A program made the translations under genes and the position numbers. Below are positions 30,177-52,100 of a stretch of 64,000 bases of DNA, piece after piece. How positions within the stretch are numbered: position 1 is the stretch's first letter; every line of letters begins with the position of its first letter. The notes below the pieces were generated by a model. The model did no database searches, had not been told where the DNA came from, and saw nothing but the letters and a program-made list of their open reading frames with translations. Source of the DNA: Candidatus Pelagadaptatus aseana (GTDB lineage Bacteria > Pseudomonadota > Gammaproteobacteria > Pseudomonadales > Cellvibrionaceae); the NCBI GenBank assembly GCA_040365065.1, contig BAABNI010000004.1, positions 80,854-144,853 of the forward strand, read 5' to 3'.

Positions 30177-30199
30177 ATCAATTCCAAGGAGATGAGTTT

Positions 30200-30753: not shown

Positions 30754-30761
30754 ATAAGCGG

Positions 30762-32740: not shown

Positions 32741-32751
32741 GGAATCACGCC

Positions 32752-33462: not shown

Positions 33463-33590
33463 AAAGGTGAGCACCGTAGCTAATTAATGAGGTAGATCCG
33501 GCCTTATGTGGAAGGATGGAATCATAAAAGTCTTTGGGTGCAAATCAACACCATCTGACAAAGTTTTTTGCTTAAATCATTGCTTAAAAC

Positions 33591-33627
33591 GAAAAAAGGC
33601 TAGTAGGTGTTAACCTGCTAGCCTTTT
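33591..33627 (-). terminator. Rho-independent terminator downstream of tRNA-Arg (bidirectional hairpin)
   Basis: GGCTAGTAGGT-GTTA-ACCTGCTAGCC, an 11-bp stem with one G-U pair. There is a 6-T run on the minus strand and a 4-T run on the plus strand. Confidence 0.7.
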
Positions 33628-33634
33628 CCTTATA

Positions 33635-33711
33635 TGGCGCACTCGGAAGGATTCGAACCTTCGACCGCTCGGTTCGTAGCCGAGTACTCTATCCAGCTGA
33701 GCTACGAGTGC
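33635..33711 (-). tRNA. tRNA-Arg (anticodon ACG)
   Basis: The reverse complement is GCACTCGTAGCTCAGCTGGATAGAGTACTCGGCTACGAACCGAGCGGTCGAAGGTTCGAATCCTTCCGAGTGCGCCA. It forms a cloverleaf with the anticodon loop CTACGAA, a TPsiC loop GGTTCGAATCC and an encoded CCA. It is very close to E. coli tRNA-Arg(ACG). Confidence 0.95.
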
Positions 33712-33913
33712 GTGATGGCGCGTATAATATGGATGCCCCCCGTTCAGGTCAAGCAGTAATTTCAAAAAAATGAAGTTTTTTTGAATACTGCCTAGATTCC
33801 ATACAGACCGGGAGTAATACCACTACAACACGATGATTTTTTAAGCAATTCAATAAGTTAGGTGTATTGAGAACGGGTAGTGGAGGATGACTCATACACA
33901 CATATCTGACTTA

Positions 33914-34297
33914 TCAAACCTGATCCGCAATCCCCTCCCATCCGGATTTGATGGTTTTAATCAGCTCGATACATTCACTGAAAGCGCTGTTGTCTTCGTC
34001 CAGATTGCCGCGAATCAAACGCAGCTGGATGTATTCGTACAGCCGGTCGAGATTTTGCGGGATATCCGACTCCATCTCCATATTGAGTGACTCACGCAGA
34101 CCTCCGACAATGCCCAGAGCTTTACTGAGAAAGGCACCTTTGGCCGAGATATCACCGCGCTCAGCACAGGCTTTGGCCTGAAGTAAACGCTCTATAGCGC
34201 CTTCAAACAACATCTGGATCAGCTCGTGGGGGGAAGCGTTAGCTACCTTGGTTTCCAATTCCAGAGAACGGTATTGCAGGGCTTGATTGTTTGGCAT
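33914..34297 (-). CDS. fliS: Flagellar export chaperone FliS (copy 1, downstream of fliD)
   Basis: 127 aa. ASPHELIQMLFEGAIERL...KALGIVGGLRESLN...NLDRLYEYI is the typical FliS four-helix pattern. Confidence 0.9.
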   Translation of the reverse strand: MPNNQALQYRSLELETKVANASPHELIQMLFEGAIERLLQAKACAERGDISAKGAFLSKALGIVGGLRESLNMEMESDIPQNLDRLYEYIQLRLIRGNLDEDNSAFSECIELIKTIKSGWEGIADQV

Positions 34298-34312: not shown

Positions 34313-37300
34313 TTAATCTTTCTTACTGTAGAGTGCGTTCAACACTTCAAATTGTTGCGCAATGTAATCCCGGGTTGAGTTCAGCTGCGATACCAAGATG
34401 TCGTTAAAAGCAAACTGTCGGGCCAGCTGAGTCTGAAAGGCCTCAATCCGGTCATCCAGAGCCTGACGATCCTCATCCAGTTCAGCCAGCTCATCCTGCA
34501 GGCCGCTTTGCTTGATCCCCAGACCGCCGTCGCTATCAAGGAAATCCTTGAGGAAATCCTCCAGTTGCGCGGCAATCCCTCGACCAAACTCAATTTCGCC
34601 CCGGTTACCCAGATTGCCACCCAAAACATTGATGCGCAGATCTTCAACGGGAGTTCCGGTAGCACCAACCAAACGCTGGCCACTGCCCAACGCGGCATAG
34701 CCACCGATGGTACCAGCGACACTGGTACCAGACTCGAAAGTAAAATCATCGTCGGTGGTTTCTACAAGCCCCAAACTGCTACTGGCAAAGTTATTGGGGC
34801 TCTTCACATGAAAGCTTACGTCATTACCAAAATCAATTTTAAAGCTGCCACCCTCAGTAGAACCGTCATAGGTCACAGTGGCCAGAGTCAGATCTTCACC
34901 CCGGACCAAGCCGGCCTCAATGCCAAAACCGTCCAGTGCGCCACTGCCGTCAAAACCGGAACTGTAGACCGCATCACCGGCAAACAGGTTGAGCGGATCC
35001 ACCATATTTTTTACTTCCAGTGAGGCGCCGCTGCCCACTGTGTCGGAAGTAATGACACCATTTTTGCTGTTGCTCTGAAAGTAGAGATTGTTGGCTCCGT
35101 CCAGCTCAACGGTAATATCACCCGCGGCAAAATCACTGCTGGCATCCAGCGCGGCATCGATCTGCCCCTGAATGTAGGCCTGCACTTCCGATATGGTATC
35201 CCCTGCTGCGCCATCGGCGTCCAGAGTGATATCAAAGTCGGTACCGGCCATACTCAGAGTAAACGTCGACGTATTGGCTCCCGAAAAATCTTCGGTGCCG
35301 GTTAATGCGGTAGCCCCCAGCGCCGTTTTGGCGCCCGAACCATCGGCAACCACATTAAGCGTTTCAGTGGGTCCGGTAGCCACGGTTTTCAACACCAAAC
35401 CGGTACCGGAACGATCGGCCACCAGATTACCGGCAAGCCCCGGCGTGGCATCAATCTGATCCTGTACGCTTTGCAAAATATCGTCGATGGCATCGGTATT
35501 GCCATCACCATCGATATCGGAGGCCGCCGTCCCATTGGCGTCGATCACCAGATCATAGCGGGTCCCATTGTACTCAACACCAAAGGCGCGGGGGTTCGCA
35601 GTAAAATCAATGGCGCCAGCGGTGATATCCACCGTACCAGCTCCGGTTTCAGCGCCTTTTCTGGCCGCAATAAAGTTGCTATCAGTGGCAATGGCCGTTT
35701 GTAAAGCCAACGCAATATCACTGCCATCATTACTGTTGATAGCCACCGATAAGGTATCAGACGTTACCCCGTTGGCTTCAATGGTAAATTCTGCCGTATC
35801 GTTGAGAGTTGAGCTCAACGCATCCGTTACTGATAAGGCGGACAGCTCTGTAAATTCACCGGAACCAGCGGACAGGCCAATGCTGGAGGCCATGGAAGAT
35901 TCGGCGGCAGACACAATAAAACCCAACTGCCGACCATCGCCGTTTTTCTCAAAACTCATGGTCAGCTTGCCAGTTTCCAAATCGCCCTCAAAAGCGACAT
36001 TGGCGGTCAAACCTTCCGCTTTGAAATTCGAGTCATCGTTAATGGCAGCCTGAATAGCCTGCGCCAGATCATCGCCACTGGAGTAGCTGCCATTGGCAAT
36101 CTGGATACTGTTGGAGGTCACCCCATCCACACTCAGGGTAAAATCATCGTTGCCGCCGTTGATGGTCACCGCACTGGCAAAATCATCGGTGGTTTTTAAC
36201 AGCGAAACGGTATCGCCTGAATGGCCACCCTGCTGCGGTTCACGCAGCCCTAACGTTAACGCGGTAGTGGTATCGGTACTGACAAACCCCAAATTGGAAG
36301 AGGCACCGTAACTGCCGGAAGTCAGTTCAAACCGCTGTTCTGCAGCGTTGTAATTCACCTCTACCGATTTACCGGCATCCTGAATATTAACGTCGGTATT
36401 GATGGCACTCTGTATGGCTTCAGCCAACTCATCACCCGTGTAGGTACCGCGTGCCAGAGTAATCTGATCGGAGTATTGGCTGTCTACCTGAACTTTGAAA
36501 CCATCGTTGCCTGCATCAATAACAAAGGGCTCTCCGGAAGTCGACAGGCCAAGCAACTGAGCCTGTTCCGCCACACGGGAAATAACAATTTCGTAGTCAC
36601 CGGCCTGAGTATCATTGGAGCTGCTGACGTAATCAATCAGCGAGTCTGTCGCGGTGGCACCAATGCCAAACAGGGTACTGAGTGACTCGGCATCGGACTG
36701 CAGGGCTGACTGAAACGTGCCACTGTCGAATATCAAAAGGCCGGTTTCACCGTTGGTGGAAATCCCCACCTCGGACATGGTCCTGAAGTCGGTACCATTG
36801 AGTGAACTGACCGCAGACGTCAGAATATTTTGCGAAGAAGTAATCAAGCGACGAATGGTATTATCACCGGTAAAAATACTGCCCAAGCCGGTATCGGGGT
36901 CAAAGGCAGTTAACCCATTCACGGTGGTTTTGAGTTCATTGTAAGCGTCTACCATGGTCTGCATCCGCTCGGTTACTGCCGCAGTATCCCGCTCTACTGT
37001 CAGGGTAACAGGGCCAGCACTGTCCTGCTTGAGGTTGAGCGTCAGACCATTAATTACCCCGGCCACCAGATTCGATTCACGGGTAATATCCAGACCATTC
37101 ACTTTAAATTCGGCGTTCTTGGCATCCACCGTCTGTAACATGGTGGTTGAGTCGTCATCGAAAGACAGGCTGTCGAGACCATTGGATGGGTTGTTAACCG
37201 AGACCGTAAAACCGTTATTTTCACCGGTTTCTTCTGAGGTAAAGAGCAAACGATAGCCACTGCCGGTATCAACAATGGTGGCTTCGATTCCCATATCCGC

Positions 37301-37822
37301 GTTATTCACCGCATCGCGAATACCGGTAATGGTGTGGTTACTGGCGTCGATATTGAGCTTTCTGACAGCGGCCTCAGAATCGGCTGTAAACGAAAAGCTG
37401 GGTGTGCCGGAGTCGTAATCTACATCACCAAAGGTGAACACCAGCTCACCTTCTCCCAAAACGGCGTCGAGATCACCGTACTCGGCAGAGGCAATGGTTT
37501 GTGAACGAGCCAGCTGGCTGGTTTCAATGGTGTAAACGCCCGGGGAAGCCAGAGAACTGGCAGTTGCCGTTAAAGCTGAGTCATTGGTCGAGGAGGTGGT
37601 ATTGGTCTGAAAAGACGAAGTCAGGGTCAGGGCATTGGCGGCGGCACGCAGGGACTCTGCCTGACTGGCGACATTGCCCAGCTCAGACACCTGAGTATCG
37701 AGATTTTCCTGCTCGGCATTGATGCGCTTGTCGGCTGATTCACGCTCTACCGCGACCAGGTCATCAATCAATTCGGAGGTTAAAACCCCGGAACCGATAC
37801 CTACTGATGAAATTGAAGCCAT
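34313..37822 (-). CDS. fliD: Flagellar filament cap protein FliD, giant (1169 aa)
   Basis: The N-terminus MASISSVGIGSGVLTSELIDDLVAVERESADKRI and the C-terminus ...RIEAFQTQLARQFAFNDILVSQLNSTRDYIAQQF are canonical FliD coiled-coil ends. AEFKVNGLDITRESN is the FliD core. About 600 aa of extra repeat modules lie at residues ~430-1030. Confidence 0.9.
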   Translation of the reverse strand: MASISSVGIGSGVLTSELIDDLVAVERESADKRINAEQENLDTQVSELGNVASQAESLRAAANALTLTSSFQTNTTSSTNDSALTATASSLASPGVYTIETSQLARSQTIASAEYGDLDAVLGEGELVFTFGDVDYDSGTPSFSFTADSEAAVRKLNIDASNHTITGIRDAVNNADMGIEATIVDTGSGYRLLFTSEETGENNGFTVSVNNPSNGLDSLSFDDDSTTMLQTVDAKNAEFKVNGLDITRESNLVAGVINGLTLNLKQDSAGPVTLTVERDTAAVTERMQTMVDAYNELKTTVNGLTAFDPDTGLGSIFTGDNTIRRLITSSQNILTSAVSSLNGTDFRTMSEVGISTNGETGLLIFDSGTFQSALQSDAESLSTLFGIGATATDSLIDYVSSSNDTQAGDYEIVISRVAEQAQLLGLSTSGEPFVIDAGNDGFKVQVDSQYSDQITLARGTYTGDELAEAIQSAINTDVNIQDAGKSVEVNYNAAEQRFELTSGSYGASSNLGFVSTDTTTALTLGLREPQQGGHSGDTVSLLKTTDDFASAVTINGGNDDFTLSVDGVTSNSIQIANGSYSSGDDLAQAIQAAINDDSNFKAEGLTANVAFEGDLETGKLTMSFEKNGDGRQLGFIVSAAESSMASSIGLSAGSGEFTELSALSVTDALSSTLNDTAEFTIEANGVTSDTLSVAINSNDGSDIALALQTAIATDSNFIAARKGAETGAGTVDITAGAIDFTANPRAFGVEYNGTRYDLVIDANGTAASDIDGDGNTDAIDDILQSVQDQIDATPGLAGNLVADRSGTGLVLKTVATGPTETLNVVADGSGAKTALGATALTGTEDFSGANTSTFTLSMAGTDFDITLDADGAAGDTISEVQAYIQGQIDAALDASSDFAAGDITVELDGANNLYFQSNSKNGVITSDTVGSGASLEVKNMVDPLNLFAGDAVYSSGFDGSGALDGFGIEAGLVRGEDLTLATVTYDGSTEGGSFKIDFGNDVSFHVKSPNNFASSSLGLVETTDDDFTFESGTSVAGTIGGYAALGSGQRLVGATGTPVEDLRINVLGGNLGNRGEIEFGRGIAAQLEDFLKDFLDSDGGLGIKQSGLQDELAELDEDRQALDDRIEAFQTQLARQFAFNDILVSQLNSTRDYIAQQFEVLNALYSKKD

Positions 37823-37886: not shown

Positions 37887-37913
37887 TTATCGGCCTACTT
37901 GGGGAAAACTTTA
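37887..37913 (-). promoter_or_regulatory. Sigma-28 (FliA) promoter for fliD-fliS
   Basis: The minus strand reads TAAAG-N14-GCCGATAA (TAAAGTTTTCCCCAAGTAGGCCGATAA), an exact match to the core consensus TAAAG-N14-GCCGATAA. It lies 65 nt upstream of the fliD ATG. Confidence 0.8.
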
Positions 37914-37921: not shown

Positions 37922-39805
37922 TTAGCCCGATGTTTTCACGAAAAATTGATACATATTGGCGAAAACATCGGGATTTTTTTCCTCAAAATCCTGCCAATTA
38001 GCCAAGTTTCTAACTCCTTCCACCCCAAACTGGCTATAAAATTTTTCCCTATAGTTTGGATTCTCAAGTGTCATGCCCAAAAAATCCAATTGATACTTTT
38101 TAAGTAAAGCCTCAATTTGAGGGATGGTGTAGCGGTGTTCCTGTGCATGAAACAACAAATCCCGGCAAGGGCTGGTAGCGTAAAAGTCACCAAAGCCTGT
38201 AACCAGCCTGCAATCAGGTCGGGCCTCTTCAGACATCAAAGCCTTCCTGACGTTCCGGATATTTTCCAGATCCGGCGACATGCCACTGTTAATGTAGGCA
38301 TTCCTCACTGCCACAACACCTCGACGGGCCGTTTCACTGTAGAGCCCCAGCCGGATAGTCCCTCCAGGCCTGATTACCTCCAACAAAGCCTCCAGACCCG
38401 CCTCGGGATTTTCCATGTGATGCAAAACCCCGGCGCATTCAATGGCATCAAACTGCTTGCCAAGCAGGCCAACCTCCATCAAATCCATATGCAGCAGCTG
38501 AAGATTGTTTACTGAATACTCATCTGCCTTCATTTGAGCGTAAGCCAGACTCCTTCTGGAGATATCGATGGCTGTCACCTTGACATCGGTTTGCAGCGCG
38601 CACATCAGAGGATGCTTGCCGGTGCCACAACCGGCCACCAGAACCTCTTTAATCTTGCCAGAGCCTGCGACCCGCTCCTCCTCAGAGAGCACCTGCTCCA
38701 TTCGCATAATGTAATCAACCCGCCCATCCGGAACAGACAATTGACGCCAACGTGGATAGGGGTTTTCCTCATACTGCTCCCTCACCTTGAGAGAGATGGA
38801 ATCAGCAATACTGCCAACACTGGATAGGGATTTTAGACACGCCCGTTCTTTTTTCTCTTCAAGAATTGCCGTATAAAACATGCCATTCAGGCTCTCGGGC
38901 CACAAATCTTCGGTCAAGCTCGACAGGGTTTCGTAACTATCAAAATCCCTGACCGGCTTGTACATAGCAAGCAACAGCAGCAACCCCTCAACAACAATCG
39001 GCTTAAACCCTTGCTGTGCAACCTGTTCTTTCAGCAAGCCTTCCAGCTCAGCAATCAACTGAAGCTCATCAGACTCCACCACATGAACGTATTCGTTCCA
39101 CTTATTCTGCCAGGCAATGGCCTGAACCAGAGGCACATAATCATCGGGAAAATCCATCTTAACCAGAGCATCAAAAAACACCTTTCTGCGCACCGCCACC
39201 AACACAGGCTCCAGCTTGGCGCTGCGGCAGTAATCTTTCTCCAGAACTTTTATCAGCAACTGATCAGACGCCAGTTCAACAATATCCGGCTCATTTTGCC
39301 CGCCATATTTGAGAGCCAGAAGCTGGGTACCCAGCTTGTGAACCTTGCCAGCCAAAAGCTCGTCGTCCCAAAACGACAAAACATCTTTTTCCACCATGGG
39401 CGAATAATTCAAGCAGTTCATTCTGTCCAGACAGTGACGAACGATATTTCTGATTGAATCGGACATCCTCAGCGGTTCCGCTAATTCGTGAGACCGCACA
39501 TAAGCACTTGAAAGATCATTGTTTCGATGCGCCAGAATCACTTCGGCCATCAATACTTGCTGCCCTTCCAGGTCATTTGCGGCAAGGTTTCGGGTATCAC
39601 TCAGGACACGTTCAGCATCCACGAGCCTGCCAGCATTAATCAGGCACTCGAGATATTGAATCGCATACACAAAACCCAATTCACTCTCAGGCCAGCCCTG
39701 CTCAAGAATTTGAGCCGCCTGCAGCCATTCTCTGGCTTGCGCCTTTACCGTTGCCTGCTCAAGCAAAAGCGCCGACGAAGAGCTGTGCTGGGTTAAATTT
39801 GTCAT
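37922..39805 (-). CDS. TPR-like repeat protein fused to a class I SAM-dependent methyltransferase (paralog A)
   Basis: 627 aa. The helical-repeat N-terminal half is followed by ENPYPRW, motif I VLVAGCGTGKH, VTAIDIS and FDAIECAGVLHHM. The C-terminal ~270 aa align throughout with the ORF at 45532-47586. Confidence 0.75.
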   Translation of the reverse strand: MTNLTQHSSSSALLLEQATVKAQAREWLQAAQILEQGWPESELGFVYAIQYLECLINAGRLVDAERVLSDTRNLAANDLEGQQVLMAEVILAHRNNDLSSAYVRSHELAEPLRMSDSIRNIVRHCLDRMNCLNYSPMVEKDVLSFWDDELLAGKVHKLGTQLLALKYGGQNEPDIVELASDQLLIKVLEKDYCRSAKLEPVLVAVRRKVFFDALVKMDFPDDYVPLVQAIAWQNKWNEYVHVVESDELQLIAELEGLLKEQVAQQGFKPIVVEGLLLLLAMYKPVRDFDSYETLSSLTEDLWPESLNGMFYTAILEEKKERACLKSLSSVGSIADSISLKVREQYEENPYPRWRQLSVPDGRVDYIMRMEQVLSEEERVAGSGKIKEVLVAGCGTGKHPLMCALQTDVKVTAIDISRRSLAYAQMKADEYSVNNLQLLHMDLMEVGLLGKQFDAIECAGVLHHMENPEAGLEALLEVIRPGGTIRLGLYSETARRGVVAVRNAYINSGMSPDLENIRNVRKALMSEEARPDCRLVTGFGDFYATSPCRDLLFHAQEHRYTIPQIEALLKKYQLDFLGMTLENPNYREKFYSQFGVEGVRNLANWQDFEEKNPDVFANMYQFFVKTSG

Positions 39806-39853
39806 GCTTAAACCTCGAAAGGGACAGTGTCACATTAGAAACAAACAACAAAA

Positions 39854-39869
39854 TGCAAATATTGGGCCA
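39854..39869 (-). promoter_or_regulatory. Sigma-54 promoter for methyltransferase paralog A
   Basis: The minus strand reads TGGCCCAATATTTGCA (GG-N10-GC spacing, TTGCA -12 element). It lies ~49 nt upstream of the ATG at 39805. Confidence 0.65.
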
Positions 39870-39882
39870 CCAGACAAACAGG

Positions 39883-39911
39883 CAAAAAAAAGCCCGCTTT
39901 GTAAGCGGGCT
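39883..39911 (-). terminator. Rho-independent terminator after flaG
   Basis: The minus strand reads AGCCCGC-TTACAAA-GCGGGCT followed by TTTTTTTT. Confidence 0.8.
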
Positions 39912-39951
39912 TTCTGATTTGAGATTGGAATAGTTAACTTACTTTATTCCA

Positions 39952-40338
39952 TTAAGCTTGCGCACTAAACAATCTCAATGGCTCTTCTTCGTTTAGCCTG
40001 GCCGCGAGTGTCAGGGCCACCTCATTGGGAATCTGCCTTACAACTTCTTCAGTATTTCTGTCGACAACCGTAACGACTGTCTTACTTACCGAATCATCGT
40101 AGGCAAAATACAAATCCCTCTGAGTTGATTGCACGTAATCATTTAGCTTAGATACGGCTTCATCAACTTTGGCCTGATTCACATCAACCTGATCAACCTG
40201 GGCTGCCGCTTCAGTTTCCTGTTGCGGCAACTGATTGCCGGTTGCCTTCTCAACAGCAGCAGACTTGCTCTGATTCAGAGCTGAAGAAGCAGTTCTCACA
40301 CCGGCTGTCAGTGCGTTGCTTGAATTAACTTCATTCAT
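39952..40338 (-). CDS. flaG: Flagellar protein FlaG
   Basis: 128 aa. The C-terminal LYFAYDDSVSKTVVTVVDRNTEEVVRQIPNEVALTLAARL is the FlaG family signature. It sits downstream of the flagellin gene. Confidence 0.85.
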   Translation of the reverse strand: MNEVNSSNALTAGVRTASSALNQSKSAAVEKATGNQLPQQETEAAAQVDQVDVNQAKVDEAVSKLNDYVQSTQRDLYFAYDDSVSKTVVTVVDRNTEEVVRQIPNEVALTLAARLNEEEPLRLFSAQA

Positions 40339-40472
40339 AACTCTTTCCTCTGCTGGTTGCTGGAGGGGCTTGGTTTCAACATTATAGCCTCAACCTTAAC
40401 CTCTCCATTTTACCCTTCTCTATCACGTTTGTGGAACCCGGTTCTCACCGGGCCCACTGTTTCTGCTGATTA

Positions 40473-43400
40473 TTACTGCAGTAGTGACAGAGCCTGCTGA
40501 GGCAAGGCATTGGCCTGTGCCAGTACGGAGATACCAGCCTGCTGCAGCACCTGCGAACGGGACAGGGCAGCGGTTTCAGCCGCAAAGTCCGCATCCTGGA
40601 TTCGACTGTTTGCAGCAGTCAGGTTCTCAGAAGTGATCGCCAGGTTAGAGATGGTAGATTCAAAGCGGTTTTGAATCGCACCCAAGTTGGCTCGCTCACC
40701 GGAGATAGATTGCAGCGCGTTGTCGATTGCAGTCAGGGCTTCGTTAGCACCTTCGAGAGTGGAGATATCGATTTCATCGATAAAGATACCACGCTCGGTC
40801 GCACCGAAGGAGCCCTGAGCAAAGCTCAGACCAGCCAGTGCGGAAGCACCGTTACTACCCGCTTCTACTTCAATCTCACCAGAGCTGCTCAGCTGCACTG
40901 AAGAGTAGGTAGTAGCCGCAGTATTGGCGTAATTCAAAGAAGCATTATTGCTGATATCGGCTTCGTTGATGCCGTCCTGACCAGCACTCAGACCGATGGC
41001 ATTACCAAAGTTGGCCACACCTTCGTTGTCGATCGCTACAGAGATGTTACGACCATCTTCAGCAGTCAGGGTAATGCTCACACCGTTATCTTCAGCAGTT
41101 ACACCGGTTTGACCCGATACAGCGTTGATGGCATCGATGGCAGAACCACGGTCCTGATCGGCATCACCGGTCAGAACAACACCGTTGGTCTGTACACCGT
41201 TGATGTAAACGCTACCGGAAGAACCTGCGGCAGCCACTGCGCCTGTTCCGTCACCACCAGTTACCACAGTTTCGTTAACTGTAGCAGTCACACCAGTACT
41301 GTCGCTGGCACGGTTGATGGCCGCAGCAACTGCGATACCGGAGGCAGACGCGTCACTGGACTCGGCGGTGGTATCGGATGCTGTGTCATCAGATGCCAAA
41401 GAGGCACCAATGGCTGTTCCGTTAATAACCAGGTCACCATCATCCAGGCTATCCACAGTTACCGCACCGGCTTGGGCTTCACTGCCGTCTACCGCAGAAC
41501 CACTTACGGCGAAAGTACCGTCAGTCAGACGAATCTGGCTACCGGAACCAGTGGCTTCGTCAGTAAAGGTCAGGGTGCCATCGGCATTTGCCACAACGGT
41601 GGAGGCATCAAACGCTGCACCAATGGCTTGTACCTGATCTTCAATTTCAGCGGCCAGGTCGGCCAGAGTGTTATAGCTGCCATCAGAAATGGTGATGGTG
41701 TTCTCGGTAGTGCCACCGTCAGCAGAGTAGGTAAAGGTGTTATTACCTTGCGCTGCGCTGATCGACAGAGGATCGGCATTACCGTTGGAGTCAACAAAGG
41801 TACCTGCAGCCAGTGTTCCGCTGCCGTCAGCCACACTGAAGGCACCGGTTGTTGCAGTACCTGCAGTCGCAGCACCGTTAACACCAGCGGTTGAGGTCGC
41901 AGTCAGATCATCATCAGCCGCCACAATTTCATCAGCGGTAGCGGTAGACAACTCAACGGTACCACCGGAATTAGAGCTGATTACAACCTGATCACCAACA
42001 GCTGTGGCAGTAATGCCGGAACCAGCCAGAGAAGTATCCGCGGCGTACTGGATAACGGCGGCCAGTTCTGCAGCGTTAGTTGGTGGGTTGGCTGATGCAG
42101 GATAGCCACCATCGGCAACCGCGGCAGCAGAATCCAATTCCAGATCGGCTGCGCCAGCACCATCCACATCAATACCAATGGTATCGGCACCACCGGCACC
42201 GGCAGTCAGAGAGAAGCCAGACAGGAAGGCTGACACATCGGTAATAACGCTATCGCCGTTGGCCAGTTGCTGTACTGAATTACCCTGATTAGCTACCTCA
42301 ATGGTGTTGGCACCAGTTGAGGAGTCGGCCACCACTACGCTACTGGCAGCACCAGTGCTCTGGGAAGTCAGCAGCACATTCAGGCCATCTTCGGAGACCG
42401 AAGCTTCAACGGTACCCGCCAGACTGGTAGAACCAATCGCGGTATTCAAGGCCGCAGCAAAAGTAGCCGCATCGGTATAGGTCGCACCACCAATGGTGAT
42501 GTCCACCGCCGAATTACCATCAACAGCAATACTTAGCTCATCCAGGTTGTTACCGGTATCAGACACCAACGCGTTAACGCCGTCGAAGGTAAAATCAATG
42601 GTTGCAACACCGGCCGTACCGTTATCCGCCGCAGAACCACCATCGGTAGTCGTTACAGCAGTTGGGATGGCAATGTTACCGGAAGAACCGGTTCTTACAG
42701 ACACAGAAGACGCATCACCGGTAGTTGCCGAGGTGAAGGTCAAGCCACCGGAACCGTTATCGGAAGCAGTCACCAGACCGTTCAGAGCACTGCCGGAAAT
42801 GGCGTTATTCACCGCATCAGCCAATTGGGCCGCGTCGTCGTACTCACCCGCGCCGGAGCCGGCATCGTAGGTAGAGCTCAGCTGAACCTGAACAAAAGAA
42901 GCACCATCGACAGAAATTTCGAAGGTGTTATTGGTGGCATTCACCACGGTGTTGGCAGCAATATTCATGTCACCGGTAGTAAAAGTACCGGAAGTGGCGG
43001 CTGTCAGAGAGCCAGCTTCAACACTGCGCGCAGAACTGTTAACCAGGGCTTGACCGGCTTGGTAGTCGCCTACGGTCAGACCTGCGTTGGCAATATCATC
43101 ATTACCGGTTCCATCACCACCACTGACACTGATGGTACCTTCACCACTCAGAGTGAAACCACCGTAGCTGGTACCTTCAGACAGACCAGTAGCCGCTTCA
43201 AAATCTGCAGAAGTACCGGACAAACCGCTGAAGCTAACGTCGATATTACGACCATCAGCCGCCTTCAGAATCACACCGCTGGACTGACCACCATCTTCAG
43301 CGATCACACCGGTTTGATCCGACTTGGCATTAACCGCAGAGATAACCGCATTACGGTCATCGTCAGAACTTGCACCACCCGTGGAGATATTAATGTCTAC

Positions 43401-44177
43401 ACCGTTCAGGGTTACGGTACCGCTCTCTGCACCCGCTGTCATGGCAGAACCGGTAGCAACGGTTTCGTTTACCGTAGCAGTCACACCGGTTTCATCAGAA
43501 GAACGGTTGATCGCTGCCGCCTTGGCGATGGCAGAGGATGCCGCATCAACGGTAGAAGCGTTGTCATCCTGAGAGCTGGATGGGGTAATCGCCACACCAT
43601 TGATGATCAGGTCACCGTTGCTGATGGCAGAAGAAGTACCGATAGCACTTACGCCAGCAGTTTCAGAAGAACCGAGAGTGTCAGCGGTCATCTTGCCAAC
43701 GGCAACTTCAATGGTTTCACCGGAGTTAGCACCAATCTGGAATTGAGAGGTGAAAGAACCGTCCAGCAGGTTACGTCCGTTAAAGTTGGTCTGTTCAGCA
43801 GTACGGGTGATCTCGGAGATCAGCTGCTGGGCCTCAGCGTTCAGAGCCTCACGGTCGGAGTCACTGTTGGTGCCGTTAGCAGACTGCAGTGCCAGCTCAC
43901 GGATACGCTGCATGTTGTCAGTCATCGAACCCAGAGCACCCTCGGCGGTTTGCGCCAGAGAGATACCGTCACCGGCGTTACGAATAGCCACTGCCAGACC
44001 CTTGGTTTGAGATGTGAAACGAGTTGAAATCGCCAGACCCGCCGCATCGTCCTTCGCACTGTTAATACGCAGACCAGAGGACAAACGCTCCAGCGCTTGA
44101 GCTTGGTCAGACTGCGACGTATTCAAGTTACGTTGAGCCGTCAGCGAGCTGATATTAGTGTTAATAATCTGAGGCAT
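40473..44177 (-). CDS. fliC: Giant flagellin (1234 aa)
   Basis: From ATG 44177 (RBS AGGGAG): [51 protein letters not shown]... (flagellin N domain). The C-terminus is ...[72 protein letters not shown] (flagellin C domain). About 930 aa of Thr/Ser/Ala/Gly/Asp-rich repeat modules lie in between. Confidence 0.95.
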
Positions 44178-44255
44178 GATAAATGCTCCCTGTTGGTTTT
44201 TAGCGTCGGGCCCTGGCGAATGCACAGGACTCGTTTTTTCTGTTCTACAAACGGG

Positions 44256-44282
44256 TTAACGGCAGGGTATGGAGGGGCTTTA
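44256..44282 (-). promoter_or_regulatory. Sigma-28 (FliA) promoter for the flagellin gene
   Basis: The minus strand reads TAAAG-CCCCTCCATACCCT-GCCGTTAA, with a 14-nt spacer and one mismatch to GCCGATAA. Confidence 0.75.
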
Positions 44283-44473
44283 GGTTTTTTTTAAGAAAAA
44301 TTGCTTAAAAATCGACTCTATTGCTTTTTTTATGAGAAAGAGCCCATCAGGGAAACATAAACAACTGTTTTCAAAAACATTTTTAAATAGCCGGCTTTAT
44401 GGCAACGGCCTTATCCTTGAAAAAATCAACGCTTATATAAATAAGAAGAAAGAAAATTTAACCAATAATTTCC

Positions 44474-44500
44474 TAAAGCCTGCCCCCCATCAGTCGATAA
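44474..44500 (+). promoter_or_regulatory. Sigma-28 (FliA) promoter for the second fliS gene
   Basis: TAAAG-CCTGCCCCCCATCA-GTCGATAA, with a 14-nt spacer and one mismatch. It lies 48 nt upstream of ATG 44548. Confidence 0.7.
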
Positions 44501-44547
44501 GCTGTTTATCTTGGATAACACCTTATAAAACTCAGGAGACTGTCCCT

Positions 44548-44988
44548 ATGTACCGACAAAACGCCATGCAGCAGTACCGTCATGCCCAGGCATCGGCAGC
44601 CATTGACAGCTCTCCTTATAAGGTCATTTCCATGCTTATGCAGGGCGCTCTGGATCGCATGGTTTCAGCCAAAGGCTGTATCGCCAACAACGATATTGCC
44701 GGTCGCAATCATTTTATTGGCAAAGCCGCCGACATTATTGACTGCCTGAAAAACTCACTGGAACACAAGCACGACGAAGAGATGACCAACAACCTGGACA
44801 ATCTCTACGATTACATGGCTCGCCGCCTGTTTCATGCTAATTTGAAGAACTGCCCGGACACTATTGATGAAGTTTATGGTCTATTGGATACTATTTACGA
44901 TGGCTGGAAAGAGCTGGAAGACAAGCTTCCGGATGCCGGTGTCAGTGTCGCCAGCGTCGAGCGCCAACCACTCCCATTGAGCAAGTGA
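44548..44988 (+). CDS. fliS: Flagellar export chaperone FliS (copy 2, divergent from the flagellin gene)
   Basis: 146 aa from ATG 44548 (RBS CAGGAG). SSPYKVISMLMQGALDRM...GKAADIIDCLKNSLE...NLDNLYDYMARRL matches the FliS pattern. The longer ORF from 44332 would run over the sigma-28 promoter. Confidence 0.8.
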   Translation: MYRQNAMQQYRHAQASAAIDSSPYKVISMLMQGALDRMVSAKGCIANNDIAGRNHFIGKAADIIDCLKNSLEHKHDEEMTNNLDNLYDYMARRLFHANLKNCPDTIDEVYGLLDTIYDGWKELEDKLPDAGVSVASVERQPLPLSK

Positions 44989-44998
44989 GAACGTAGCC

Positions 44999-45280
44999 AT
45001 GATTGGTGAACTGACCGAACAACTCGAAACCGCGACCCAATCGAAAGACTGGCAGCAGGTTGCAGACCTCGACCAAAATCTCAAGCGCAACGTTGGTCGC
45101 AAGGTTGAGTTGTGCAAAACCCCTGAGGAAGCGAAAGCTCTGATGGATGATTTGCAAAAACTGATGTACGCCTATCATCTCAGTATTGAGGCCTGCGAGA
45201 AGGACAGTGCTGAACTTAAGCAGGATAATCAGAGCCTGCACCGTGGACTCCAAGCCAGCAAGCAGTATCTTTCTATTTAG
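44999..45280 (+). CDS. Small helical protein, possible FliT-type flagellar chaperone
   Basis: 93 aa, predicted helical (LTEQLETATQSKDWQQVADLDQNLKR...), positioned right after fliS as fliT often is. No motif-level proof. Confidence 0.3.
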   Translation: MIGELTEQLETATQSKDWQQVADLDQNLKRNVGRKVELCKTPEEAKALMDDLQKLMYAYHLSIEACEKDSAELKQDNQSLHRGLQASKQYLSI

Positions 45281-45294
45281 CGCTTTGGGATTAA

Positions 45295-45380
45295 CAGATC
45301 CTTCGCTACGCTCAGAATGACATGGCTCTGGTTTCCCGGATCCCTGTCTTTCTGGCGACCACAGGGAGGAAGAATCTATC
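45295..45380. repeat. REP-like element pair
   Basis: CAGATCCTTCGCTACGCTCAGAATGACA (45295-45322) and TCTTTCTGGCGACCACAGGGAGGAAGAATCTATC (45347-45380). Confidence 0.6.
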
Positions 45381-45477
45381 TCCATCCAGTCAAAAAAGCG
45401 GCAACTCTTTTCCCCTCTCCTCCAAATCGCTCAACATAATATTCTCAACACACTGATTTAAAACAACTTTTCCCATC

Positions 45478-45493
45478 TGGCCCGATCTATGCA
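45478..45493 (+). promoter_or_regulatory. Sigma-54 promoter for methyltransferase paralog B
   Basis: TGGCCCGATCTATGCA has GG-N10-GC spacing. It has the same TGGCCC -24 element as the paralog A promoter. It lies 39 nt upstream of ATG 45532. Confidence 0.55.
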
Positions 45494-45531
45494 TTTTACC
45501 GCTTGGATAATTTTCTCAAGCGGATAGAGCC

Positions 45532-47586
45532 ATGAATACTCAACACGCAGCAGCGTTAACATCAACTGAAACTCCTGTAACGCTGGGCAAGAAAGAACAA
45601 CTACAAATCGCGCAACTACTCAGCGACGCCATCAACCTGTATCAGGAAACCCGATCTGAAAAGTTGAGCGTATCGGAAGTAGCGGATCTGCAGGAACGCA
45701 GTATTGATTTAGCCGAAGAAGTATTCGCTCTCGACCCGACCAATATCGAAGCACTCAATGTTCTCGCCAGAGTCCGTCTGGACCAAAATCATCTGGTATT
45801 GGCGGAAACGATTGCTCAGGCCGCGCTTGCCATTGATAAAAACTCAGCCACATCCTGGTACAGCTATGGTCAGGTGCAACTTGCCATGGGTAATCTCAAC
45901 AACGCTGAGCAGGCATTTGTAAAATGCATCAGTCTTGATGCCACTTTCTTCAGGGCTCATACCTCCTATGCATTCACCAAACTGAATAAAGGCGAGATAG
46001 CCGCGGCTTTCCAGCACTACACCAAGCTGGCCAAAATCAAACCGGAAGATGATCACATCCGCTCCAAACTGTTTGAGTGCATGAAACAACTCAAAGCAGA
46101 TTACGACAACGAGCATTTAGGTAAAGCTCTGGTTGATTACCTGAACTGGAAAGACGTTAACTATCAGGACCTAAGTAATATCATCGAGTCTCTGTTAGTG
46201 CATCGCTACAAACTGGATTCCAGTGAAGCACAGGTGGACTTATCAAAGCTGTGTCAGGACAAACTTTACAACGAAGGTTTACGTAAACTCTTTTTCTGCA
46301 ACCCCAAAATTGAAGAGCTCAATCGTGATCTGCGTGGTTACTTCCTGACCCTCGATAATCAACTGGCTGGCCCGGACGAGATTCACTTGATGTCTTCTCT
46401 GGTTTATCAGCTCTATAACAATGAATACGTACTGAGTTATACCGAGAGTGAAGCAGCCCAACTGGAGATCATTTGCCAACAATTAAGCAAAGCCGATCTG
46501 GACAGCCTGCAACAGCAGCAGACAAATCTGCTGAAGGCCCTGCTCTACCGACCACTGAAGAGCACCTTGTCGCGGATGCAAATCATAGAACTGCTGTCAC
46601 GTAGGGATAAATGTTGGCAACCAGAAATATTCCAGCTAATCACCTGGCTCGACAAACAGGAAGACGGGGAGTCAACTGCAGGTATTCTGGTTCATGAAGA
46701 CATCACCAACCAGACGTCCAAAGCGGTAAAAGCCCAGTATGAAATCAACCCCTACCCTCGCTGGTTGAGCCTGGATTTTCTGACGCCCACCACTTACGGT
46801 GTGGCACTGGAAAAAGCTTTGCCTTTGCATAAGGCGGACAAACACTTTTTCTCCGATTCGCTGGATATCCTGATCGCTGGATGCGGCACAGGCCGCCACG
46901 CCATTCAGGTAGCCCGCTACTTCCGTGGCGTTAATGTCACCGCCATCGATGTCAGCATGCACAGTTTGTCCTATGCCAACACCATGGCAAAAAAATACAA
47001 GCTGGATAATATCGAGTTTATTCAGGCGGACATTCTCAATCTCGGCAACTTTGATAAGCGTTTCGATATCATCGAATGTTCCGGTGTATTACACCATATG
47101 GCGGACCCTCTCGAAGGCGCTCAAATATTAAAGAACCTGCTCAAGACACACGGCCTGTTAAAGGTTGGCCTGTACAGTGAGCGGGCACGCTCCGAAGTGG
47201 TTGGCTGCCGTAATTTGATCAGTGAGCTCTATCCGGAAACCAACAGCCGGGTCATCAGAGACTTTCGACGGGAGGTACTAAAGAATGCCAACGGCTTTCC
47301 GCAAATTGTACAATCAGCCGACTTCTACAGCATGAGCGGTTGTCGAGACCTGTTGTTCCATGTTCAGGAACACCGCTTTACCCCAACCTCGTTAAAGCAA
47401 CTTATTGATAATCTGGGGATGGAATTCCTTGGCTTTGTTCAGGTGCAGAGTGACTACCTGAAGGCCTACGATGAGCGCTTCCCTCTCGATCAGGCCCGTA
47501 CCGATTTGGCCAACTGGGAGCAGCTTGAGGATGATATTCCGCAAATTTTCTCTGCCATGTATCAGTTTTACTTGAAAAACCAATAA
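45532..47586 (+). CDS. TPR repeat protein fused to a class I SAM-dependent methyltransferase (paralog B)
   Basis: 684 aa. Clear TPR units (SWYSYGQVQLAMGNLNNAEQAFVKCISLDATFFRAHTSYAFTKLNKGEIAAAFQHYTKLAKIKP). Then INPYPRW, ILIAGCGTGRH, VTAIDVS and FDIIECSGVLHHM. Confidence 0.8.
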   Translation: MNTQHAAALTSTETPVTLGKKEQLQIAQLLSDAINLYQETRSEKLSVSEVADLQERSIDLAEEVFALDPTNIEALNVLARVRLDQNHLVLAETIAQAALAIDKNSATSWYSYGQVQLAMGNLNNAEQAFVKCISLDATFFRAHTSYAFTKLNKGEIAAAFQHYTKLAKIKPEDDHIRSKLFECMKQLKADYDNEHLGKALVDYLNWKDVNYQDLSNIIESLLVHRYKLDSSEAQVDLSKLCQDKLYNEGLRKLFFCNPKIEELNRDLRGYFLTLDNQLAGPDEIHLMSSLVYQLYNNEYVLSYTESEAAQLEIICQQLSKADLDSLQQQQTNLLKALLYRPLKSTLSRMQIIELLSRRDKCWQPEIFQLITWLDKQEDGESTAGILVHEDITNQTSKAVKAQYEINPYPRWLSLDFLTPTTYGVALEKALPLHKADKHFFSDSLDILIAGCGTGRHAIQVARYFRGVNVTAIDVSMHSLSYANTMAKKYKLDNIEFIQADILNLGNFDKRFDIIECSGVLHHMADPLEGAQILKNLLKTHGLLKVGLYSERARSEVVGCRNLISELYPETNSRVIRDFRREVLKNANGFPQIVQSADFYSMSGCRDLLFHVQEHRFTPTSLKQLIDNLGMEFLGFVQVQSDYLKAYDERFPLDQARTDLANWEQLEDDIPQIFSAMYQFYLKNQ

Positions 47587-47781: not shown

Positions 47782-47808
47782 AAAGCCGGGAAACAGTCCC
47801 GGCTTTTT
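47782..47808 (+). terminator. Rho-independent terminator
   Basis: AAAGCCGGGA-AACAG-TCCCGGCTTTTT. Confidence 0.8.
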
Positions 47809-49196: not shown

Positions 49197-52100
49197 TTAG
49201 AATGCCGCCAACAGAGTATCGAACAGATCTCTGGCAACACTGATAATTCTTGATGAGGCGTTATACGCCAGCTCATAGCGAATCAAATTGGCCGCTTCTT
49301 CATCGAGGTTGACCCCGGCAATGGAATTTCTTAATGCATTGGACTGCTCGAGAATTTCACCCGCCGCTTCACGATTGATATTGGATTCCGCGGTAATGGT
49401 GCCAACAAATTCAACCAGATTACTGTAGGACTCCTGAAACGATGCATTACCCCCAATTAACTGCATCGATTCCACTTCAACAAACTTCAATGCATTGCGG
49501 TTATCACTGACACCATCTTCATTAAAATTGACAAAGAACTCATCCCCCACATCCGGATTACCACTGATATCAAAGGTGTAACCAAGATAATTGGAAACCG
49601 CCTCTGTTCCGGGGCGAAAAACATTGCCGGCATCGATGGCATCGGTGGTCATGGAAAAGTTTTCTTCCAGTGTCACATTGACTTCACCGGATATGGTTAC
49701 ACCATTGACCATGCCGAAATCTTCACCGCGAACCACACCTTGCAGCTCAGCCACCTGCATACCCAGTGGATCACTGCCCTGAATATTGTTTACCTGAATT
49801 TGGGCCCGTTCCATATTGACAGCATCGGGCCCGGTAATGGCAAAGCTGCCATTACCCAATCTAACCTGGCTGCCCAGCCCGCTATTGGAATCGGTAATCA
49901 ACAGAGACGAGCCTGACACCTCAACACTGACATCAGAGCCCGTGGCGCCATCGATTGCCGCTGCAAAACCAATCAGGTTGCTATAGGTTCCTGCCGGGAT
50001 CTGATAAGTGGTAAACGTAGTTCCGCCATCAACCGAAATTTCAAAACTGTCATTAACTCCGGTAACGACAGTCAAGGGCGCAGGATTACCATAGGCATCT
50101 TCAAAGTTACCAATATGATCAACATTGAAAGAACTGGTTGTAGCGGTGCCCGATGTTGCCGGCGGAAATGGTACAGAAGTAACCGGGCCAGAACTGCCCA
50201 TATTGGTATTGGCCGCAAGCGGTGTCGTACTGTCGGTAGTAATCAGTACGGATCCCAACGGATTTGACGAGGCAATGATAATTTGCCCACCATCTTCAAA
50301 AGCTGTAACGCCTGACCCAGCCGGTGACGCCGCAAAGCTGGCATTCAACAGGGATACCAGCTCAGCGGTATTGGTTGGTGGATTACCTGGGCCATTAACG
50401 TATCCCGGTGCATCAAAATCCAGTGGCAAAGGTAAGGTGCCGACACCATCTACATTGAGACCAATATTTTCATCATCGGCAATACCCAACCCGATAAAAC
50501 CAGCCGGATCGGTAATCACCGCGGTGCGCCCCAGATGAGTCACCAAATCATCCTGAGGATTGGCCTGAATGGGGTTGACAGCCCCCGGTCCAAATATCAG
50601 TGCTTCACCCAGATTGTCGGCCGTTACCAGCACACTGCGTCCATCATCACTGACGGTGGCAGTCGCATCGTAGGCAACCAGCGCAGTATTCAGTGCCGCG
50701 GCAAATAACGTTGGCGAGGCATAGCTGCCACTGGGAACGGTAATATCGGCGATTGGAGAAGCGTTAACACTGATGGCAAACGTGTTGGCACCCGGCGCAA
50801 CAACCAAAGGCAGCGCCCCATCAAATTCAAAGTCCACCTCGGCCTGATCAAATGACAGCGGACTGGGCGCCGTACCATCAGTGAAGCTGTAATTATTGGA
50901 AATACTCAAGCCGCCGGTACTGGAATCAGCCAAATAGGTGTAGTTGGTAATCTCCAACCGGCCCTCAGAGGAGACACTGGCAATGACTTTATCGGCACCA
51001 TAAAAGGCATCCAACTGACTTTGCACCACATCCACAATGTCCTGAGGATCGGTGTAGACACCACTGAGGTTAATGGTCACCGGATTATTGGCACCAAAAA
51101 CTCCGTCATTCAAATCAACGTCGAAGCTGTGAGGGCCGCCGACTGAAAAGTCAGCACCATTGGCAATATTGACACCGGCTGTAACCGAAGGAAATTGATA
51201 AGCGCCGTCAAGCCTCACAATATCACTGGGCTGAACCACACCTTGCAATGCGGCCGCTGACAACCCGAGGGGATCGCTACCGACCAGATTACCAATCTGC
51301 ATTTTTGCCAAGGGGCCATTATCATTATTGACAAACTGCAAGGTGCCATCATCGCGGAATTCAACACTCACTTTACCCGGCACATCAAAAGCGATATCGA
51401 TTTGATTTTCCAGATAACTGATCAATTCTTCCGGTGTTTGAAAAATTCCGGACAGCTCTATTGTCTTGGGGTTACTTAAACCATTTGGTCCATCAAATAA
51501 ATCGATATCAAAACTGCTGAAACCACCGGCACTGAGATCCACGCCACCGGTAACCACTCCCGTGGTCAGAAGGGTCGGTTTCTGATCGCCTTTTATTTCA
51601 ACAAAATCACCTTCCGCTCCCTGCATCTCAAACTTCAGATCCGCACCGGTAGACGCTTTGATTGTAATGCTGTCACCATTACTGACCGCAGTAATATTCT
51701 GCTGCTGAAGAGCCCCGCTGAAATTGATGGCATCGGCAATCATGTCGTTGGTAACCGGGGTTGGCACAGCACTTGGCGAAAACAGCAGTCCCAGCTCATT
51801 GCGCAAATTGACGCCATTCAGCAGTAAATTAAAATCCTGTAATTGGCCCGGTCCATTGTCGGATACCCTGATCTGGGTTTCCGTAGAAGCAATGGCCGTG
51901 ACGCCATCTCGCGACGATAACTGAAAGGCTATTTCTTCAGCAGAATCGCCGGCATTAACCACCACATTGGGCTGATCAACCCTAACGCCAGTAACAGGGT
52001 CGGTATAGGTGACGGTTATTTCTTCCGCTAAATAGGTATTGGGGATGCTGATCCCGGCTGTTCCGAACACCACCTCGGATTGGCTGGGAATACGATTGGC

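Follow-up and report, generated by a model that had tools for sequence, protein, structure and literature searches.

A 64,000-nucleotide stretch of the genome of Candidatus Pelagadaptatus aseana, a member of the Cellvibrionaceae (contig BAABNI010000004.1, positions 80,854 to 144,853; hereafter the window) includes a flagellar gene cluster in which two genes, here denoted MT1 and MT2, encode predicted S-adenosylmethionine (SAM)-dependent methyltransferases preceded by helical modules of the tetratricopeptide repeat (TPR) or TPR-like type. On the minus strand, the gene for a giant flagellin, fliC (1234 amino acids, aa), is followed in the direction of transcription by flaG, MT1, fliD (1169 aa) and fliS (33914-34297). 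On the plus strand, a second fliS gene, fliS' (146 aa), is followed by a FliT-like gene (93 aa) and MT2, which is convergent with a minus-strand block consisting of flgL, flgK (1521 aa), flgJ, flgI, flgH, flgG, flgF, flgE (1330 aa) and flgD. The first-pass annotation of this DNA placed the two methyltransferase genes in divergent orientation on either side of flaG-fliC and fliS'-fliT, and this gene order is borne out; both open reading frames (ORFs) also have exactly the coordinates, strands and lengths reported there. The two genes and the domains of their products are as follows.

37922-39805, minus strand: MT1 coding sequence (AseanaTS_13310), 627 aa; short TPR-like N-terminus, family-specific helical domain, and a class I methyltransferase similar to protein-lysine methyltransferases of the PKMT group
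39491-39781, minus strand: MT1 residues ~9-105, degenerate TPR-like module of three helix-turn-helix pairs (DSSP of the AlphaFold (AF2) model; weak match to Pfam TPR_19)
37925-38800, minus strand: MT1 residues ~336-627, catalytic module (alignments; Pfam Methyltransf_25 at residues 388-482; fold match 8HKR)
45532-47586, plus strand: MT2 coding sequence (AseanaTS_13360), 684 aa; TPR array, helical domain, PKMT-like class I methyltransferase
45670-46089, plus strand: MT2 residues ~47-186, TPR array of ~4.5 repeats (Pfam TPR_17, TPR_19, TPR_8 and TPR_2; AF2 helices; profile matches to OGT and consensus TPR proteins)
46111-46662, plus strand: MT2 residues ~194-377, all-helical, family-specific linker domain (alignments and AF2 secondary structure)
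46711-47583, plus strand: MT2 residues ~394-684, catalytic module homologous to Rv2067c and to the PKMT core with inserted helical subdomains (phmmer and profile searches against the Protein Data Bank (PDB); Foldseek)

Domain architecture and relatives of the catalytic module

MT1 and MT2 align in BLASTP over 546 residues (MT1 97-625, MT2 155-683) with 29% identity and 52% positives (E = 8e-62), so the similarity includes the long C-terminal region already recognized in the first-pass annotation and reaches beyond it. All six motifs quoted there are found in both proteins, namely (MT1 first, MT2 second) the common NPYPRW; VLVAGCGTGKH and ILIAGCGTGRH, the motif I stretch; VTAIDIS and VTAIDVS; FDAIECAGVLHHM and FDIIECSGVLHHM in the GVLHHM region; GLYSETAR and GLYSERAR; and, at the C-terminus, DFYATSPCRDLLFHAQEHRYT and DFYSMSGCRDLLFHVQEHRFT. 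The elements of the MT1 catalytic module are the QYEENPYPRW lid, GCGTG (motif I), AIDIS, GVLHHM, LYSE..R, CRDLLFH.QEHR and MYQF. Four Pfam methyltransferase families (Methyltransf_25, 11, 12 and 31) match both proteins above the gathering cut-offs, with E-values of 1e-14 to 1e-20, and the AF2 models (pLDDT of 92.7 for MT1 and 93.4 for MT2; pTM of 0.89 each) display the beta-alpha-beta core of the class I fold. By these sequence and model-based criteria, both proteins are class I (seven-beta-strand) SAM-dependent methyltransferases. Because the AGCGTG of motif I and the conserved acidic residues (that of AID(I/V)S, and D500), as well as GVLHH, are invariant or nearly so across 78 homologs, with the predicted SAM-binding residues kept, MT1 and MT2 look catalytically competent.

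Both models have the same three-part plan of N-terminal helical hairpins, an all-helical domain and a C-terminal methyltransferase with helical insertions. The TPRs of MT2 are clear by profile (TPR_17, E = 1.8e-11; TPR_19, E = 7.3e-9; TPR_8, E = 4.3e-8), as had been proposed, along with TPR or TPR-like N-terminal halves for both proteins. For MT1 'TPR-like' is a fair description, its N-terminal helices (9-23, 27-37, 44-57, 61-72, 78-94 and 98-105 in the DSSP assignment of the model) forming about three hairpins, but the module is short and degenerate, and the only profile match is weak (TPR_19, E = 0.023). Thus, MT2 is a TPR protein by profile, and the modelled structure of MT1 is suggestive of the same. 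The helical middle domain comprises ~190 residues in both models; in a Pfam scan, no model matches the corresponding stretch of MT2 (residues ~194-377), and its conserved residues in the alignments are E261, R268, N297, E307 and Y339 (MT2 numbering).

The catalytic module is closest, by both sequence and fold, to protein-lysine methyltransferases, first to Rv2067c of Mycobacterium tuberculosis and then to PKMT1 and PKMT2 of Rickettsia. The Rv2067c structure (8HKR) is the best PDB match other than TPR proteins, with E = 7.6e-35 for a profile and E = 9.5e-18 for a single sequence, and its phmmer alignment with the MT2 module (query residues 57-257) extends beyond the Rossmann core and takes in the helices that follow beta-5 and the 'DF..S..D..H...R.T' region; the match to Rickettsia PKMT2 (5DOO) has E = 3e-4 in the same type of search. 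Foldseek searches with both models retrieve 8HKR first (E ~2e-11, and 2.7e-11 for MT2; 25% identity over ~255 columns), followed by PKMT1/2 (E ~1e-8 over ~290 columns), ahead of all small-molecule methyltransferases, the TM-scores normalised to the target being only 0.38-0.53 for these matches. Rv2067c trimethylates free histone H3 at K79 as a secreted effector acting on a host protein, and both Rv2067c and PKMT1/2 accommodate an extended polypeptide in a trough that their inserted helical subdomains create (PMC10739865). MT1 and MT2 have the AGCGT, AIDIS, GVLHH and LY..R elements in common with Rv2067c, and the helical insertions after beta-5 align; Rv2067c differs in that it consists of 407 aa, has no TPR or helical N-terminal domains, ends in a distinct alpha+beta domain and has no known flagellar link.

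PKMT1/2 and KmtA of Acinetobacter methylate very large surface proteins, OmpB and the 3,630-aa AtaA (PMC11784438), clients that resemble the giant axial proteins of the present locus, and PKMT1 and PKMT2 (5DNK, 5DPL) are the second-best fold match. The identity of these enzymes to MT1 and MT2 is only 12-18%; they have no TPR, and they contain the MethyTransf_Reg (PF10119) and WHD_PKMT (PF21782) domains, neither of which was found in MT1 or MT2 by Pfam search at E <= 0.1. Because these domains were not found, MT1 and MT2 are better described as probably working like the PKMT group than as canonical members of it. Another enzyme encoded beside the flagellin gene, FliB of Salmonella enterica, is a post-translational flagellin methylase (PMC7181671, PMC8598068). 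FliB depends on a [4Fe-4S] cluster (PMC8598068), is unrelated to MT1 and MT2, lacks the class I Rossmann fold and TPRs, and acts on many surface lysines. Neither Pfam nor NCBIfam searches detected a FliB-type cysteine-rich [4Fe-4S] domain in MT1 or MT2, in agreement with the earlier judgement that a FliB-like lysine methylation model is not obviously applicable; membership in the FliB or the canonical PKMT group is thereby ruled out. The name UbiG/UbiE/BioC ('quinol methylase'), which some sources attach to homologs, can be set aside as well, considering that all NCBIfam scores are far below the cut-offs (43-45 bits vs 103 for UbiG) and that the context is flagellar.

Distribution, gene order and promoters

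We surveyed one genome per GTDB species, which yielded at least 544 relatives. For the 80 best loci, ORFs in all six frames were searched with the flagellar proteins of the window, and a neighbour-joining tree was built from the catalytic modules. All 21 sampled sequences of the MT2 clade are flagellar-linked, lying within 10 kb of fliS, fliD, flaG, fliC or flgL; they come from Pseudoteredinibacter, Saccharospirillum, Gynuella, Natronospirillum, Oleispira, Bermanella, Thalassolituus, Oceaniserpentilla and two Cellvibrionales-like genomes. The same holds for the four sequences of the MT1 clade (the window, GCA_041156585.1, Maricurvus nonylphenolicus and Endozoicomonas sp. SM1973). Outside both clades, flagellar neighbours were found for only 4 of the 67 sampled members, those of Thalassospira lucentensis, a Kiloniellales genome, an unclassified alphaproteobacterium and Micavibrio.

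The complete arrangement flgL<-MT2<-fliT<-fliS / fliC->flaG->MT1->fliD->fliS recurs in GCA_041156585.1 (locus L086) and Maricurvus nonylphenolicus (locus L088). Since the enzymes of these two genomes are only 39-46% identical to those of the window in a fully syntenic bracket, the pair is old and has been kept. A recent tandem or inverted duplication is ruled out by the 29% identity between MT1 and MT2, their positions in separate clades of the tree and the presence of orthologs of each in two other genomes; on this phylogenetic evidence, MT1 and MT2 are deep paralogs from separate clades and did not arise by local duplication. In Oceanospirillales, the MT2-clade gene is typically divergent from fliS, with fleQ beyond, and often lies between fliS and fliD-flaG-fliC. 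Of the 18 further loci, 17 have a FliS ORF next to the gene of the MT2 clade, fliS being the neighbour most often kept.

Taken together, the linkage in both clades, the bracket shared by three genomes and the upstream sigma-54-type sites described below support the dedication of MT1, MT2 and their clades to the flagellum, as the first-pass annotation had proposed. The distribution of orthologs that bears on this proposal agrees with it for the two clades, whose members lie beside filament genes, and does not extend to the family as a whole, which is not flagellum-specific.

An association of the fusion with giant flagellins holds only in part. At the MT2-clade and syntenic loci, full-length flagellins have 721-1525 aa and FliD proteins 812-1328 aa, and the flagellins beside gammaproteobacterial family members range from 717 to 1525 aa. 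Thalassolituus maritimus DSM 24913, which carries an MT2-clade locus, is by taxonomy look-up the same species as Oleibacter marinus, one of the two species with giant flagellins shown to form thick filaments (PMC6248924). Strict co-occurrence is not supported: in Thalassospira lucentensis, the gene lies in the series flgK-flgL-[TPR-MT]-fliC-fliC-flaG-fliD-fliS-fliK, and the two flagellins are of normal size (389 and 404 aa).

The transcription signals around the two genes were compared with the consensus sequences TGGCAC-N5-TTGCW for sigma-54 (GG and GC ten bases apart) and TAAAG-N14-GCCGWTAA for sigma-28, and terminator-like hairpins were read from the sequence.

39854-39869, minus strand: sigma-54-type element TGGCCCAATATTTGCA, 48 nucleotides (nt) upstream of the MT1 ATG, among only 5 exact consensus matches in the window
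45478-45493, plus strand: sigma-54-type element TGGCCCGATCTATGCA, 38 nt upstream of the MT2 ATG
37887-37913, minus strand: sigma-28 (FliA) promoter TAAAGTTT-N11-GCCGATAA in the 99-nt gap between MT1 and fliD
44256-44282, minus strand: sigma-28 consensus promoter upstream of the giant fliC, the same in Maricurvus and in locus L006
44474-44500, plus strand: sigma-28-like promoter with one mismatch, upstream of fliS'-fliT
39883-39913, minus strand: intrinsic terminator-like hairpin AAAGCCCGC..GCGGGCTTTTTTTT after flaG, which parts the fliC-flaG transcript from MT1
47782-47806, no strand assigned: bidirectional terminator hairpin between the convergent MT2 and flgL

The sigma-54-type GG-N10-GC elements reported earlier in front of both genes are present at the coordinates given, and 13 of their 16 bases are common to the two. 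Elsewhere in the window, the intergenic sites with an exact match lie in front of flgK and flgF. When one mismatch is allowed, the window contains 59 matches vs 46 expected, so that a lone match is not significant, and the case for sigma-54 therefore rests on conservation. In GCA_041156585.1 and Maricurvus, equivalent sites precede the start codons of both orthologs by 54-95 nt, amid otherwise diverged intergenic DNA, with the site of the MT2 orthologs at -56; sites of this type also precede 11 of the 18 further MT2 orthologs, compared with an expectation of 0.185 per region. Genes of the fleQ and fleR type occur in the orthologous loci.

The sigma-28 consensus has three matches in the window, vs 0.09 expected, and all of them are at this locus (fliD, fliC and fliS'). 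The fliD element, which separates MT1 from fliD, is kept in Maricurvus and has one mismatch in GCA_041156585.1, and a GC hairpin with a T-run is similarly placed after flaG in both genomes. Thus, MT1 and MT2 appear to be separate sigma-54 units amid sigma-28 late genes, an arrangement that fits the production of an enzyme before its putative substrates. Of the genes around MT1, fliD itself appears to be a sigma-28 late gene here, with read-through from the MT1 sigma-54 promoter as a possible second input.

The MT1-clade locus of Endozoicomonas sp. SM1973 (L091, 79-9989) differs in composition. A 717-aa flagellin gene is followed by a canonical PKMT gene (540 aa, with PF10119 and PF21782) and then by the family member, and is preceded by genes for a TPR protein, a GT8-like glycosyltransferase and a formyltransferase, making this a dense and diverse flagellin-modification locus. 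The arrangement suggests that flagellins are targets of PKMT-type enzymes in more cases than have been documented.

Proposed function and alternative explanations

We propose, with a probability of roughly 0.55, that MT1 and MT2 methylate proteins in a SAM-dependent manner and are dedicated to the filament module of the flagellum, each combining a TPR-addressed flagellar modifier with a PKMT-like protein methyltransferase. A protein substrate, as assumed in the first-pass annotation, is supported from two sides: the nearest relatives of solved structure are protein-lysine methyltransferases, and the TPR is the flagellin-binding module of FlmG and Maf-1. The TPR domain of Caulobacter FlmG is necessary and sufficient for flagellin binding (PMC7591256), and that of Maf-1 gives acceptor specificity (PMC13317340). 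These two enzymes and the Clostridium TPR-GT2 proteins, in which a flagellin-binding TPR is fused to a transferase that is encoded in flagellar loci and expressed before flagellin export, are the closest functional analogues of MT1 and MT2. They differ in their catalytic domain, which is a glycosyltransferase with a nucleotide-sugar donor, and we detected no homology between this domain and the catalytic domains of MT1 and MT2. Probably, then, MT1 and MT2 represent an uncharacterised kind of flagellar protein-modifying enzyme that is found beside filament genes in about twenty other marine bacteria. Literature searches, which also covered the flagella of the source organism, found nothing describing a TPR-methyltransferase flagellar factor or these genes, consistent with the earlier statement that the fusion is not a characterised flagellar factor, and the published genome description of Candidatus Pelagadaptatus aseana does not discuss MT1 or MT2.

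Under this proposal, each enzyme gene would be expressed from a sigma-54 promoter of its own, at a middle stage of the flagellar hierarchy, and enzyme synthesis would precede the sigma-28-driven late expression of fliC, fliD and the chaperone genes fliS and fliT. In the cytoplasm, the TPR/helical module would dock an axial protein that is unfolded or bound to a chaperone (flagellin, the cap protein FliD, possibly FlgK or FlgL), and an extended segment of this protein would be fed into the substrate trough of the methyltransferase; the methylated side chain would most likely be lysine, and the modified protein would then be exported by the type III machinery of the flagellum. MT1 is tied to fliD and MT2 to fliS and fliT; the clients or target sites of these deep paralogs are probably different. 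The genes for the putative clients and chaperones next to the two enzymes are the following.

40473-44177, minus strand: fliC, giant flagellin, 1234 aa, start ATG at 44177; candidate substrate
34313-37822, minus strand: fliD, encoding the giant filament cap, 1169 aa, next gene downstream of MT1; candidate substrate
44548-45280, plus strand: fliS' (146 aa; Pfam FliS) and the FliT-like gene (93 aa; ortholog match), directly upstream of MT2

Several observations weigh against this proposal. The giant proteins had been described as lysine-poor, which the counts confirm: FliC contains 6 lysines in 1234 aa (positions 42, 59, 162, 219, 285 and 305) and FlgE 5 in 1330 aa, compared with 16 in the 1521 aa of FlgK and 23 in the 1169 aa of FliD, and the flagellins of the three genomes that have both paralogs are the most lysine-poor (0.5-0.6%). 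The targets of PKMT1/2 and KmtA, in contrast to a flagellin with six lysines, are lysine-rich and multi-methylated; because the lysines are so few, dense multi-methylation in the style of OmpB or AtaA is excluded on the giant flagellin. The substrate and the target residue are predictions from sequence, the residue cannot be deduced from the fold and class I specificity in general cannot be read from it, the canonical PKMT accessory domains are missing from the Pfam matches, and the identity to Rv2067c is only ~25%. Furthermore, the synteny among related gammaproteobacteria is partly inherited and hence not independent, and most of the wider family is non-flagellar and occurs also in non-motile lineages, so the fold dictates no flagellar client.

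Methylation at a few sites is nevertheless possible, for example at K42 of FliC, which lies in a conserved motif. In Aeromonas caviae, an unidentified enzyme adds two or three methyl groups to the equivalent flagellin residue, K42 (PMC9290775), and Shewanella flagellins are lysine-methylated (PMC3765264). Besides FliC, the candidate clients are FliD, FlgK/FlgL and the lysine-rich chaperones FliS and FliT.

The last of these candidates lead to an alternative that we consider unlikely, namely that MT1 and MT2 methylate an export chaperone or regulator (FliS, FliT, FlaG, FlgM or FleQ), or that the TPR module holds export substrates in a chaperone-like manner while methylation tunes late export or filament length. 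Lysine content favours a chaperone client (9.7% in the FliT-like protein and 6.2% in FliS' vs 0.5% in FliC), as do the position of MT2 directly after fliS'-fliT and the observation that, in the MT2 clade, fliS, often with fleQ beyond, is kept as a neighbour more often than fliC. The TPR region of MT2 also has a sub-threshold match to the SycD/LcrH family of type III chaperones (TIGR02552, E = 2.4e-5), but this match is far below the family cut-off and amounts to generic TPR similarity. In Thalassospira, Endozoicomonas and Kiloniellales, however, the family gene is next to flagellin or flgL and not to fliS, and we know of no flagellar chaperone that is regulated by methylation.

That the acceptor is a non-protein group on the flagellum, such as a sugar or nonulosonic-acid substituent of a flagellin glycan, with the TPR only tethering the enzyme to the glycosylation machinery, strikes us as improbable. 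Methylated flagellin glycan substituents are known (Shewanella, PtmH-type pathways), the giant flagellin combines its paucity of lysine with 23% Ser+Thr, and Foldseek also lists sugar and natural-product methyltransferases (AtmM, RebM and MitM; E ~1e-8 to 1e-6). These matches, however, have high rmsd (~10-13 Å), and the best matches, which extend beyond the common Rossmann core, are the protein-lysine methyltransferases. Moreover, there are no glycosyltransferase, Maf or sugar-nucleotide genes near the filament genes, either here or in the orthologous loci, which are instead flanked by genes such as lysS, prfB, mscS and fleQ; a flagellin glycosylation island next to the filament genes, which would have made MT1 and MT2 glycan methyltransferases, is thus ruled out. 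The remainder of the window holds genes for molybdenum cofactor (Moco) biosynthesis, ribonucleotide reductase (RNR), a methyl-accepting chemotaxis protein (MCP), GGDEF proteins, toxin-antitoxin systems and umuDC, as well as an epimerase-SDR fusion ~28 kb away.

Equally doubtful is the absence of any flagellar role, with MT1 and MT2 belonging to a broad housekeeping TPR-methyltransferase family that acts on another protein client and owing their place in flagellar loci to inheritance of a single ancestral insertion: the family is very large, most sampled members are non-flagellar and the 21 linked loci, from related gammaproteobacteria, are not independent, but the linkage outlives rearrangement (in Oceanospirillales the gene converges with fliD, and in Cellvibrionales it has the same direction as fliS-fliT) and divergence to ~31-41% identity, extends to two separate clades and at least four further branches in Alphaproteobacteria, and is accompanied by a conserved upstream promoter of the flagellar sigma-54 type.

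The axial proteins of the locus have unusual features of their own. Apart from FlgL (416 aa, normal), they are giant, FliD (34313-37822) and FliC (40473-44177) being joined by FlgK (49197-53762) and FlgE (58701-62693); all four are extremely lysine-poor (0.4-2.0%) and rich in Ser, Thr, Asp and Asn. With its giant hook and junction proteins, the locus exceeds the giant-flagellin phenomenon described earlier (PMC6248924). The longest fliC ORF begins at GTG 44225 and is listed at 1250 aa, an over-extension of the 1234-aa protein; the start at ATG 44177 is backed by the flagellin N-terminus MPQIINTN and by the public annotation. The 93-aa ORF matches the FliT (PF05400) homolog of GCA_041156585.1 with E = 1e-13. 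The two FliS paralogs, one after fliD (33914-34297, minus strand) and the other divergent from fliC (44548-44988, plus strand) and followed by the FliT-like gene, are kept in GCA_041156585.1 and Maricurvus, and the duplication may reflect separate chaperoning of different giant clients. In these two genomes, fleQ-fleS-fleR-fliE directly follows fliS; in the window, the flagellar cluster is interrupted after fliS, at ~26000-33900, by what looks like an insertion or rearrangement comprising a 236-aa ORF with no Pfam match, a TauD dioxygenase, an AraC regulator, a ParE/RelB toxin-antitoxin pair, umuDC and a hemerythrin.

The wider family and its significance

An exhaustive phmmer search with the catalytic module alone retrieved 2,970 clusters at 50% identity (E <= 1e-30). 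The module is C-terminal in the listed matches, behind N-termini of varying length, and family members with precomputed Pfam annotation are mostly TPR-rich. Outside the two clades, most of the sampled family members, among them those of SAR11 and Prochlorococcus, lack flagellar neighbours; a Rhodovibrionaceae member lies in a metabolic context. SAR11 is regarded as a non-motile lineage. In the streamlined SAR11 genome of Candidatus Pelagibacter nBUS_49, a full-length TPR-methyltransferase is encoded between alaS and recA (L077, 9785-11905), which implies a conserved non-flagellar protein client. The non-motile Prochlorococcus sp. MIT 0916 (L089, 1-18193) has at least three TPR-methyltransferase paralogs together with a TPR-sulfotransferase, further TPR proteins and a 2OG-Fe(II) oxygenase, an apparent protein-modification island. 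In two of the proteins retrieved, P0232 (1377 aa) and P0127 (942 aa), the module is matched in two separate stretches, apparently in tandem, and a third relative, P0129, has the same unusual length of 942 aa as P0127. One Prochlorococcus homolog is named 'Translation elongation factor P' in UniRef, an annotation that we regard as unsupported. Overall, the family looks like a general design of an address domain plus a protein methyltransferase, from which specific clades were recruited to the flagellum.

A bolder version of our proposal, which we put forward only tentatively, is that MT1 and MT2 represent a third, so far unrecognised class of methyltransferases acting on flagellar proteins, in addition to FliB and the PKMT/SO4160 type. 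Such enzymes, PKMT-like and guided by their TPRs, would be required for the processing of giant, lysine-poor axial proteins before export, acting on a few conserved lysines, such as K42, or on a non-lysine residue, and the parent family of ~3,000 clusters would represent general TPR-addressed protein methylation, including that in SAR11 and Prochlorococcus.

Flagellin methylation outside Salmonella FliB is poorly understood, and so is the handling of giant flagellins before export. An MT2-type gene is present in both species shown to form thick filaments from giant flagellins; the ortholog occurs in Thalassolituus maritimus (= Oleibacter marinus) and in Bermanella genomes, both organisms being cultivable. 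The placement of sigma-54 enzyme genes amid sigma-28 substrate genes would fit an 'enzyme before substrate' arrangement. For the family at large, the ~3,000 clusters now labelled 'UbiG/UbiE-like methylase' or 'TPR protein' are, as the evidence suggests, PKMT-like protein methyltransferases with a TPR address domain.

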